NCBI GenBank assembly: GCA_027422105.1 | Contig: DAIBFU010000001.1 | Span: 1 to 57,138, forward strand | Direction of reading: 5' to 3' | Length of the DNA: 57,138 nucleotides | Source of the DNA: Vulcanimicrobiota bacterium | GTDB taxonomy: Bacteria > Vulcanimicrobiota > Vulcanimicrobiia > Vulcanimicrobiales > Vulcanimicrobiaceae | Made by a program: the position numbers and the translations under genes | Part shown: positions 4,803 to 5,022 of the stretch, one piece after another | Numbering within the stretch: the stretch's first letter is position 1 | How the letters are laid out: every line of letters begins with the position of its first letter | Notes under the pieces: model-generated | The model's database searches: none | The model's input: only the letters and a program-made list of their open reading frames with translations | What the model was told of the DNA's origin: nothing

Positions 4803-4843
4803 ATAAAAGAAAGCCGCCTCACCGGTAGATCGGTGAGGCGGCT
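4803..4843 (-). terminator. intrinsic terminator / attenuator hairpin in the 5' leader of the oxidase gene
   Basis: On the minus strand, AGCCGCCUCACCG - AUCUAC - CGGUGAGGCGGCU forms a perfect 13-bp stem. It is followed directly by UUCUUUUAU. It ends about 27 nt before the oxidase ATG. Confidence 0.75.
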
Positions 4844-4863
4844 GTACTCGTCTGCGGGTAGTG

Positions 4864-4950
4864 TTAGGGTTCGACGGGTATAGGCGGCTCGACCGATTCC
4901 GATGCGGAACGGTATTGATAGCTGCCGAATAGATACGCCGGTGCGAACAT
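4864..4950 (-). CDS. candidate 28-aa small ORF / leader peptide MFAPAYLFGSYQYRSASESVEPPIPVEP
   Basis: The ATG at 4950 has AAGG 8 nt upstream, and the TAA stop is at 4866-4864. It lies between the divergent mgtC-like start and the terminator hairpin. Five of the first 13 residues are Phe or Tyr. The longer tracked ORF (to 5220) is antisense to the mgtC-like gene. Confidence 0.3.
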   Translation of the reverse strand: MFAPAYLFGSYQYRSASESVEPPIPVEP

Positions 4951-5022
4951 GGCGGCAACCTTAGCAGGTTTGTCGGTAAAAAACAAGAGGGTGCCGATAC
5001 CGCAGGAGCGCACATCAGCGGC

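Follow-up and report, generated by a model that had tools for sequence, protein, structure and literature searches.

The window analysed here is a stretch of 57,138 nucleotides (nt) from a Vulcanimicrobiota bacterium (contig DAIBFU010000001.1, positions 1 to 57,138), whose protein homologues place it in Eremiobacterota/Vulcanimicrobiota. Our subject is a short leader region on its minus strand together with the gene that follows it, which encodes a predicted heme-oxygenase-like dimetal oxidase (HDO). A promoter, a small open reading frame (ORF) and an intrinsic terminator precede the oxidase gene, and we consider it likely that this leader is a transcription attenuator that responds to the supply of tyrosine. 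The gene on its other side (5023-6321, plus strand, DUF4010) is divergent, and thus the terminator can act only on a transcript begun in the intergenic DNA. The preliminary description of this stretch had listed the 28-codon ORF, a 13-bp hairpin with its tail, a GAGGA Shine-Dalgarno sequence, a promoter-like pair and the divergent upstream gene; all of them were found again where it had placed them. In the following list, the HDO gene, the leader ORF and the Tyr codons were read from the sequence, the promoter from the sequence and its relatives, and the terminator from a terminator scan and folding.

3997-4785, minus strand: HDO gene, a 259/264-amino-acid ORF with its GAGGA Shine-Dalgarno at 4785-4781, start ATG at 4776 or 4773 and stop at 3997
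4958-4986, minus strand: promoter, with -35 TTGTTT at 4986-4981, a 17-nt spacer, TG at 4966-4965 and -10 TAAGGT at 4963-4958
4864-4950, minus strand: leader ORF of 28 codons plus TAA, with ATG at 4950 and TAA at 4866-4864, encoding MFAPAYLFGSYQYRSASESVEPPIPVEP
4912-4935, minus strand: regulatory Tyr codons, Y6 TAT at 4935-4933, Y11 TAT at 4920-4918 and Y13 TAC at 4914-4912
4803-4843, minus strand: intrinsic terminator (pairing 3:4), with 5' arm 4843-4831, loop 4830-4825, 3' arm 4824-4812 and U tract 4811-4803

The terminator hairpin reads AGCCGCCTCACCG-atctac-CGGTGAGGCGGCT at 4843-4812 and is followed by TTCTTTTAT at 4811-4803. According to the terminator scan, its stem has 13 perfect pairs, 10 of them G-C, around a loop of 6, and its energy is -28.1 kcal/mol. 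When the whole 57-kb window was shuffled 20 times by dinucleotides, not one perfect stem of at least 10 bp with a T-rich tail arose; the hairpin is thus far beyond chance. About 26 nt separate its U tract from the HDO start codon. At the other end of the leader, 7 nt separate the -10 hexamer from the ATG of the small ORF, and from this spacing the transcript would start at or beside the A of the AUG, making the ORF leaderless. A scan with the sigma-70 consensus, which is that of E. coli, returned 0 sites, the promoter pair being too weak for it. We nonetheless retain the promoter, solely because its -35, TG and -10 elements are conserved, with a variable spacer, in ten close relatives (L001-L010).

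The protein encoded by the regulated gene has only weak matches to known families (Pfam Haem_oxygenas_2 and DUF3865; NCBIfam CADD and BesC), and PDB searches by sequence and by profile returned no relevant match for it. Its AlphaFold2 model (pLDDT 88) adopts a heme-oxygenase-like fold. The best Foldseek match to this model in the PDB is Chlamydia CADD/CT610, which shares the seven-helix architecture (TM-score 0.68/0.80, ~15% identity), and further matches are BesC, PqqC, FlcD, TenA, HrmI and UndA. Conserved His, Glu and Asp residues, the kinds that ligate metals in HDOs, are present. Judged by its predicted fold, the protein is a heme-oxygenase-like dimetal oxidase of an uncharacterised family, and this family is narrow, with 455 clusters (50% identity) at E <= 1e-3 among 1.84 billion representatives; 233 GTDB species genomes have the HDO. 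We rejected its assignment to the CADD family proper (NCBIfam TIGR04305), for which it scores 20.8 bits against a cut-off of 200; the likeness is at the level of the fold. An hhalign comparison of the HDO with an approximate CADD sequence gave a probability of 5% and serves as a lead only. This nearest structural relative of the orphan family performs unusual tyrosine chemistry: CADD destroys one of its own tyrosines to generate p-aminobenzoate (PMC9522330).

The leader was compared across 80 loci encoding HDO orthologues of 57-93% amino-acid identity, drawn from Eremiobacterota/Vulcanimicrobiota and Melainabacteria. The loci with enough upstream DNA supplied 72 distinct leaders and 59 distinct peptides. 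One cassette recurs throughout, consisting of an extended -10 promoter, the leader ORF, a hairpin (H1), an alternative helix, the terminator and the HDO gene. In the ten close relatives, the leader is near-invariant from a point just ahead of the ATG as far as the stop codon, varies over some 10 nt past the stop, and keeps the terminator. The distant loci (other Eremiobacterota, and Melainabacteria/Obscuribacterales) preserve the same layout in a different sequence. Every locus with enough upstream DNA has a leader ORF of 19-28 codons with a Tyr cluster, and MFAHNATVSYYYGRFQLSRPGVPLH, MLVRSSAYYYYYGYFEGSRPGTPLL and MTAKNAYSYYYYTYSLGVG are examples of the peptides encoded in distant loci. The terminator reads AAAGCCGCCUCGCCGAnGCGAGGCGGCUUUUUU in distant loci and GCCUUCUCGUCGAUCGAGAGGGC in Melainabacteria; it is conserved in all loci, with compensatory changes at 8 of 11 pairs and 99.6% of alignment cells paired. 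A TGnTAnnnT motif ends 7-12 nt (mostly 10) before the ATG in most distant Eremiobacterota loci, and the Obscuribacterales loci have no such -10 motif at that distance.

The association of the leader with the HDO gene is strict. A covariance model of the leader (R1) detects a single plus-strand copy, immediately upstream of the HDO gene, in the window and likewise in 76 of the 80 loci; its other matches are just four weak reverse-strand ones (28-32 bits) over the palindromic terminator. An nhmmer profile adds locus L047, and the remaining extra matches of that profile are likewise on the reverse strand over the terminator. A second copy of the leader, sought in the window and in all loci with a profile hidden Markov model and the covariance model, was not found. 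The distance from leader to HDO gene is tens of nt in Eremiobacterota and somewhat greater in Obscuribacterales, and the orientation is always the same. Two loci, L160 (~1820-1990) and L161, have a divergent leader that the covariance model missed; it has a AAGGAAGGA Shine-Dalgarno and a GTG start, encodes VTKALSYRGYRYCRLDSAGRRRQPGEPKETPK, and is followed, 53 nt short of the HDO ATG, by the terminator GAGCCCACCGCC-ttcg-GGCGGTGGGC with its Us.

Several properties of the leaders bear on whether the small ORF is read by ribosomes. All 72 have an in-frame start, then a Tyr cluster, and then a stop codon before the terminator; the start is ATG in all but L030 (GTG). Tyr accounts for 18% of the residues over the 59 distinct peptides and occurs in runs of 2-6 codons, the longest run being 3-6 in 52 of the 59. 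The last Tyr falls at codon 11, 12, 13, 14, 15 or 16, so the spacing from the ATG to the run changes in steps of whole codons. In every lineage of the alignment, 0-1 nt separate the end of the run from H1, and the stop codon precedes the terminator 5' arm by 21-44 nt. Further, TAT and TAC interchange freely, which argues that the identity of the amino acid is kept rather than the RNA sequence. In L160 and L161 the RNA sequence is unrelated, yet the leader encodes ..SYRGYRYC.. and a terminator follows. Past the Tyr run the peptide is not conserved as a peptide, and its C-terminal part tracks the RNA pairing: the stop lies inside an RNA motif, UCGGCUAG, or 20 nt further on, and the motif itself is kept. 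The constant frame, the whole-codon spacing, the exchange of TAT and TAC and the leader of L160 and L161 indicate, indirectly, that the leader ORF behaves as a coding sequence and would be translated.

The openness of the frame was set aside as evidence of coding, the other two frames being open for at least 19 codons in 49-56 of the 72 GC-rich leaders. We also observed that the leader Tyr codons are mostly TAT (164 TAT, 120 TAC), whereas TAC predominates in the HDO genes of these loci (143 TAT, 235 TAC); the leaders may favour the rarer Tyr codon or an A/U-rich unstructured stretch.

The comparison also refines the preliminary description, which had suggested an attenuator sensing Phe or Tyr. 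The attenuator is strongly favoured by the comparative data, but as a sensor of Tyr and not of Phe: Phe makes up 4.6% of the residues against 18% for Tyr and is conserved at codon 2 only. Residue F8 of the window is Ile in the closest relatives. Likewise, aligning the intergenic regions of relatives, which that description had named as a check on whether peptide or RNA is conserved, showed that the ORF with its Tyr run and the RNA structure are both preserved, and that the rest of the peptide is not.

Beyond the terminator, the RNA of the window has the following parts, of which H1 was obtained with ViennaRNA and RNAalifold.

4892-4913, minus strand: hairpin H1 (pairing 1:2), with ACCGUUCCG at 4913-4905, loop CAU, CGGAA at 4901-4897, a bulged U at 4896 and CGGU at 4895-4892
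4873-4900, minus strand: 5' strand of the antiterminator (region 2), overlapping the H1 3' arm and pairing with 4852-4827
4853-4872, minus strand: apical loop of the antiterminator, holding the stop codon at 4866-4864 and variable among close relatives
4827-4852, minus strand: 3' strand of the antiterminator (region 3), comprising the complete terminator 5' arm and some of the terminator loop

RNAalifold identifies two helices with compensatory changes, namely H1, directly after the Tyr codons, and the terminator. All of the H1 pairs (7/7) are changed on both sides, and 93% of its cells are paired. The codon of Y13, the last Tyr of the window, overlaps the 5' arm of H1, and in the window's genus the hairpin has a lower extension in which 4926-4920 pairs with 4889-4883. 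In place of the apical loop, most other lineages have a small hairpin, H2, at the stop codon, and its pairs covary (e.g., AU 43 / GC 16). Taken over H1, H2 and the terminator, the share of paired cells is 94.9% and falls to 28-52% with slid partners, and both sides are changed in 18 of 21 pairs; these pairing figures come from a structure-fitted alignment and hence lean towards the structure.

The third pairing is the antiterminator. To mimic a stall, each leader was folded with everything up to 13 nt past the last Tyr codon masked and the terminator 3' arm left out, as not yet transcribed. The same long interrupted helix, UCGGC..GGU..GC..UUGC [H2] GCAA.GC.GCC..GCCGA, then forms in 72/72 leaders. 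In this helix the H1 3' arm, together with the nucleotides that follow, pairs with the terminator 5' arm over its full length, and in each of the 72 leaders at least 7 nt of the 5' arm are sequestered (mean 10.1); in the window the helix has 22 bp and -22.1 kcal/mol. Across alignments, the antiterminator is 79-80% paired versus 30-51% with slid partners, and in one of these comparisons 80% versus 30-43%. Over the 72 leaders, the duplex of regions 2 and 3 has medians of -20.4 kcal/mol for the energy and -2.7 for z (z < -2 in 57), and in the window it reaches -20.1 kcal/mol against -10.4 kcal/mol for shuffles (z = -3.7). When the full-length RNA is folded without a ribosome, the terminator forms in 70 of the 72 leaders.

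A chain of positions ties the three pairings to one another: alignment column 59 pairs with 80 in H1, 80 with 154 in the antiterminator, and 154 with 167 in the terminator. Columns 80 and 154 correspond to positions 4892 and 4834 of the window. Along this chain, 45 sequences have G-C-G-C, and the 10 from the window's genus have A-U-A-U. The preliminary description had proposed folding the region in search of mutually exclusive structures, and these are present, since H1, antiterminator and terminator share columns. It had based its expectation of alternative pairings on the near-duplication of the terminator arm within the ORF (GAGCCGCCUAUACC / CAGCCGCCUCACC). This near-duplication is real, but it is confined to the window's genus. 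Alternative pairings do exist, though not through competition between duplicated arms; the conserved one joins 4900-4873 with 4852-4827.

The locus thus combines a conserved short leader ORF, a cluster of codons for one residue placed where a stalled ribosome would mask segment 1, an intrinsic terminator between the ORF and the gene, and mutually exclusive 1:2, 2:3 and 3:4 pairings. We conclude that transcription into the HDO gene is probably controlled by ribosome-mediated attenuation of the trp type, with charged tRNA-Tyr as the signal that the leader senses. From this arrangement we infer where transcription starts, that the ORF is translated, that ribosomes stall in it and in which direction the system responds. 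Transcription would start at the AUG of the leaderless 28-codon ORF or a few nt from it. When Tyr-tRNA is scarce, a ribosome would stall on the Tyr codons at 4920-4912, which abut H1, and would cover the 5' arm of that hairpin. Region 2 (4900-4873), once freed, would pair with region 3 (4852-4827) while the terminator 3' arm is still to be transcribed; with the antiterminator formed, no terminator would arise and RNA polymerase would read into the HDO gene. When Tyr-tRNA is plentiful, the ribosome would reach the stop codon inside region 2, and H1 would re-form behind it. The more stable terminator (4843-4812 and the U tract) would then form, and a transcript of ~150 nt would be released. The prediction is thus that a shortage of tyrosine induces the HDO.

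A number of observations weigh against this conclusion. The leader of the window has just three Tyr codons, and they are scattered (Y6, Y11, Y13). The HDO is not a known gene of tyrosine biosynthesis, transport or charging. The covariation of the antiterminator is modest and largely reflects one event in one genus, and as the sequences are related, the counts exceed the number of independent events. With a ribosome placed at the stop codon, the fold leaves 7 nt or more of the terminator 5' arm paired upstream in 37 of the 72 leaders, and in many leaders the antiterminator is also the minimum-free-energy structure of the truncated RNA without any masking. Equilibrium folds thus do not cleanly separate the ribosome-at-stop state, and the OFF state would depend on kinetics. 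Finally, predicted attenuators sometimes fail mutational tests, as in the case of S. coelicolor ilvB (PMC1262725).

Three other explanations of the locus deserve attention. The ORF could encode a functional Tyr-rich peptide that acts as substrate or sacrificial Tyr donor for a CADD-like oxidase, with a leaky terminator setting the stoichiometry at much more peptide than enzyme mRNA. The invariant two-gene cassette of peptide gene and HDO gene would suit such a role, and HDOs have been reported in the modification of ribosomal peptides. CADD, the closest structural relative, cleaves a protein-derived Tyr in a single turnover, and a cheap Tyr-rich peptide would be an attractive donor. Further, a Mur-ligase-type folC-like gene in the window overlaps a Pterin_bind gene (folP, dihydropteroate synthase; 38781-40945, plus strand), so the organism needs p-aminobenzoate, the product of a CADD-like reaction. 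We nevertheless regard this explanation as very unlikely. It does not account for the Tyr run always abutting H1 or for the covarying, mutually exclusive chain of H1, antiterminator and terminator. The stop codon shifts (the peptide ends in GVG in one case and in ..RSRPGTPLL in another) while the RNA motif UCGGCUAGG stays, and genes for recognition, a protease or export are not conserved in the vicinity. The HDO also has a Tyr of its own opposite Tyr27 of CADD, in a low-confidence alignment with an approximate CADD sequence, which makes this a lead only. A related idea in the preliminary description, a precursor peptide with tailoring enzymes as in operons for ribosomally synthesized and post-translationally modified peptides, is disfavoured as well: the neighbouring pyridoxal-phosphate (PLP) gene, described below, accompanies the oxidase in the window's genus only, and elsewhere the oxidase stands alone.

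That description had also raised a riboswitch-like leader. In this case the RNA would bind a ligand or a protein, its helices would be aptamer and expression platform, and the ORF would be incidental. Among close relatives, ~95 nt are near-invariant, beyond what is seen in the flanking DNA; the few changes within the window's genus show no bias towards synonymous sites; and the leader folds better than its shuffles (z = -3.4). The antiterminator forms without a ribosome in many leaders, so another factor could tip the balance. These facts are offset by the stretch between the ATG and the Tyr codons, which is variable and without conserved structure, yet is always in frame and spaced in whole codons. 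Tyr is kept through synonymous changes and in the lineage with a different RNA sequence (L160/L161), no Rfam family matches at its gathering score, and the 1:2, 2:3 and 3:4 scheme covers all conserved helices with no additional junction that could form a pocket. An RNA switch of this kind seems to us likewise very unlikely. It is more improbable still that the leader is an independent small gene, either a trans-acting small RNA (sRNA) or the mRNA of a small protein, with the oxidase gene served by its own promoter. On paper the leader is a complete transcription unit, having a promoter, an RNA of ~150 nt and a strong terminator, and it weakly resembles two sRNA models (BcKCsr2, 17 bits; RcsR1, 21 bits). 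However, it lies in the same orientation upstream of the HDO start in two phyla and nowhere else in the loci searched, the ~26 nt between U tract and HDO start leave too little room for a separate promoter in the window, and a conserved antiterminator would have no role in a stand-alone gene.

The proposed tyrosine-responsive attenuator has relatives in function. An Rfam search with the window and six loci, a check that the preliminary description had proposed, found no family at the gathering score, the T-box included. The best sub-threshold match was Leu_leader (RF00512), at full length with 25 bits against a gathering score of 50. Since Leu_leader is itself a leader-peptide attenuator, we count this resemblance in favour of attenuation; Phe_leader (RF01859) scored 16 bits against 55, and the best match of the window was BcKCsr2 with 17.2 bits against 40. 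The element would work like the attenuators of enterobacteria and resembles the leaderless leaders of Corynebacterium, so that its type of mechanism is already known. The enterobacterial attenuators (trpL, pheL, hisL, leuL; Rfam Trp_leader, Phe_leader and Leu_leader) likewise have a short ORF with clustered codons for the sensed amino acid and overlapping 1:2, 2:3 and 3:4 pairings, with 3:4 as the terminator and a stalled ribosome selecting the antiterminator. Unlike them, the element described here would sense Tyr, its ORF has no Shine-Dalgarno and begins 7-12 nt after the -10 hexamer, its antiterminator takes the form of a long, interrupted helix around the stop codon or H2, and it would control a single orphan oxidase instead of a known biosynthetic operon.

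Leaderless attenuators with poly-Cys upstream ORFs are known in mycobacteria. Leaderless leader peptides have also been described for Corynebacterium glutamicum ilvBNC, trp, leuA and aroF, the last with F-Y-F (PMC4046766). They share with the present leaders an ORF that lacks a ribosome-binding site, and the regulatory codons of aroF include Tyr. The present leaders differ in belonging to other phyla, in having no sequence relation to those of C. glutamicum and in containing pure Tyr runs of up to 6; unlike aroF, the gene controlled here is neither a DAHP synthase gene nor a known gene of an aromatic pathway. The Tyr T-boxes of Firmicutes (tyrS and tyrosine genes) respond to the same signal, low charging of tRNA-Tyr, with the same antitermination at a leader terminator. 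A T-box, however, binds uncharged tRNA directly and without translation, and no T-box model matches the present leader. In a comparative study of 2005, tyrosine genes were regulated by T-boxes, and attenuators regulated histidine, threonine and phenylalanine genes (PMC1262725).

These comparisons indicate where the locus adds to what is known. It presents a widely conserved cis-regulatory RNA that has no Rfam family, in Eremiobacterota/Vulcanimicrobiota and in the non-photosynthetic Melainabacteria, both of them little studied. Among described leader-peptide attenuators, those that we found with Tyr among the regulatory codons are few; the aroF leader of C. glutamicum (F-Y-F) was the sole case. 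The locus also suggests that Eremiobacterota/Vulcanimicrobiota and Melainabacteria use leaderless translation for regulation. Further, the regulatory logic may serve as annotation, in that an orphan HDO family is predicted to be needed when tyrosine is scarce, which is a testable hypothesis.

What, then, might the oxidase do? Because its induction by tyrosine starvation is predicted, the attenuator suggests that the HDO supplies or spares tyrosine. Such induction would be odd for a tyrosine-consuming enzyme, and in this respect the HDO departs from CADD. One possibility, which we advance tentatively, is that the attenuator marks the HDO as a tyrosine-supplying enzyme of a new type, either a pterin-independent dimetal phenylalanine 4-hydroxylase or an O2-dependent oxidative decarboxylase of arogenate/prephenate. 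The dimetal phenylalanine 4-hydroxylase would be the simplest version of this hypothesis, with the decarboxylase as its alternative. Hydroxylation of Phe is also the entry step of Phe catabolism, and a phenylalanine 4-hydroxylase would fit both the induction by starvation and the homogentisate-type neighbours of distant family members. The literature yielded nothing on an HDO with cysteate synthase, an HDO with tyrosine biosynthesis, or tyrosine auxotrophy or prephenate in Eremiobacterota.

Those distant members form a subfamily that came from a second search (80 metagenome loci, L083-L162). They are ~35% identical to the HDO and have an extra 'GIG..NFW' loop. Upstream of the distant subfamily members in these 80 loci, the element was found in none, whether a Tyr leader or a T-box was sought. 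Their neighbours include a divergent homogentisate-1,2-dioxygenase-like gene (13 loci), FAA-hydrolase-family genes (2 loci), Lrp/AsnC or LysR regulators, an Ala_racemase_N-type gene (11 loci) and an unannotated 262-aa ORF (10 loci); example positions are L095 2784-4786, L085 1019-1870 and L158 1309-1848. This context may be read as a second, weak link of HDOs to aromatic amino-acid metabolism.

Around the HDO gene itself, no partner gene within 3 kb on either side is conserved across the loci. The conserved unit is thus the leader and the HDO gene alone. In the window, the HDO gene is followed by the PLP gene (2440-3687, minus strand), which matches cysteate synthase (TIGR03844) with 374.7 bits against a cut-off of 324.9, and PDB entry 9k3c at 3e-72. 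The gap between the two is ~310 nt, and the PLP gene probably starts at ATG 3687 and not at GTG 3894. We considered the PLP gene as a co-regulated partner and rejected it, as it adjoins the HDO gene in the window's genus only, after a gap of 310-690 nt. Outside this genus, what comes after the HDO gene is either unrelated or lies on the opposite strand, and in L082 the HDO gene is monocistronic.

Other features of these neighbourhoods are recorded here. The host of the PLP gene is a non-methanogen (Eremiobacterota), and a role of that gene in coenzyme M synthesis is unlikely. The gap between the HDO and PLP genes contains a perfect 15-bp hairpin (3921-3966, minus strand; CTCGGCCATACGCGG / CCGCGTATGGCCGAG) with a 16-nt loop and no U tract, ~31 nt past the HDO stop, and its arm occurs a single time in the window. 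In L021 (3741-4670) and four other loci, an ornithine-cyclodeaminase/mu-crystallin gene begins 12 nt after the HDO stop on the same strand; given this short gap, it would be co-transcribed and co-regulated with the HDO gene in that one clade. Farther away in the window, the Rho ORF (26126-27691, plus strand) is long, at 521 aa, with ~140 residues before its RNA-binding domain. Two HD_5 (HD-GYP-like) proteins, one of them with GAF domains, are encoded at 36623-37801 and 42059-43807 (both minus strand), and two adjacent TonB_C proteins (32363-33811) follow a MotA/ExbB gene.

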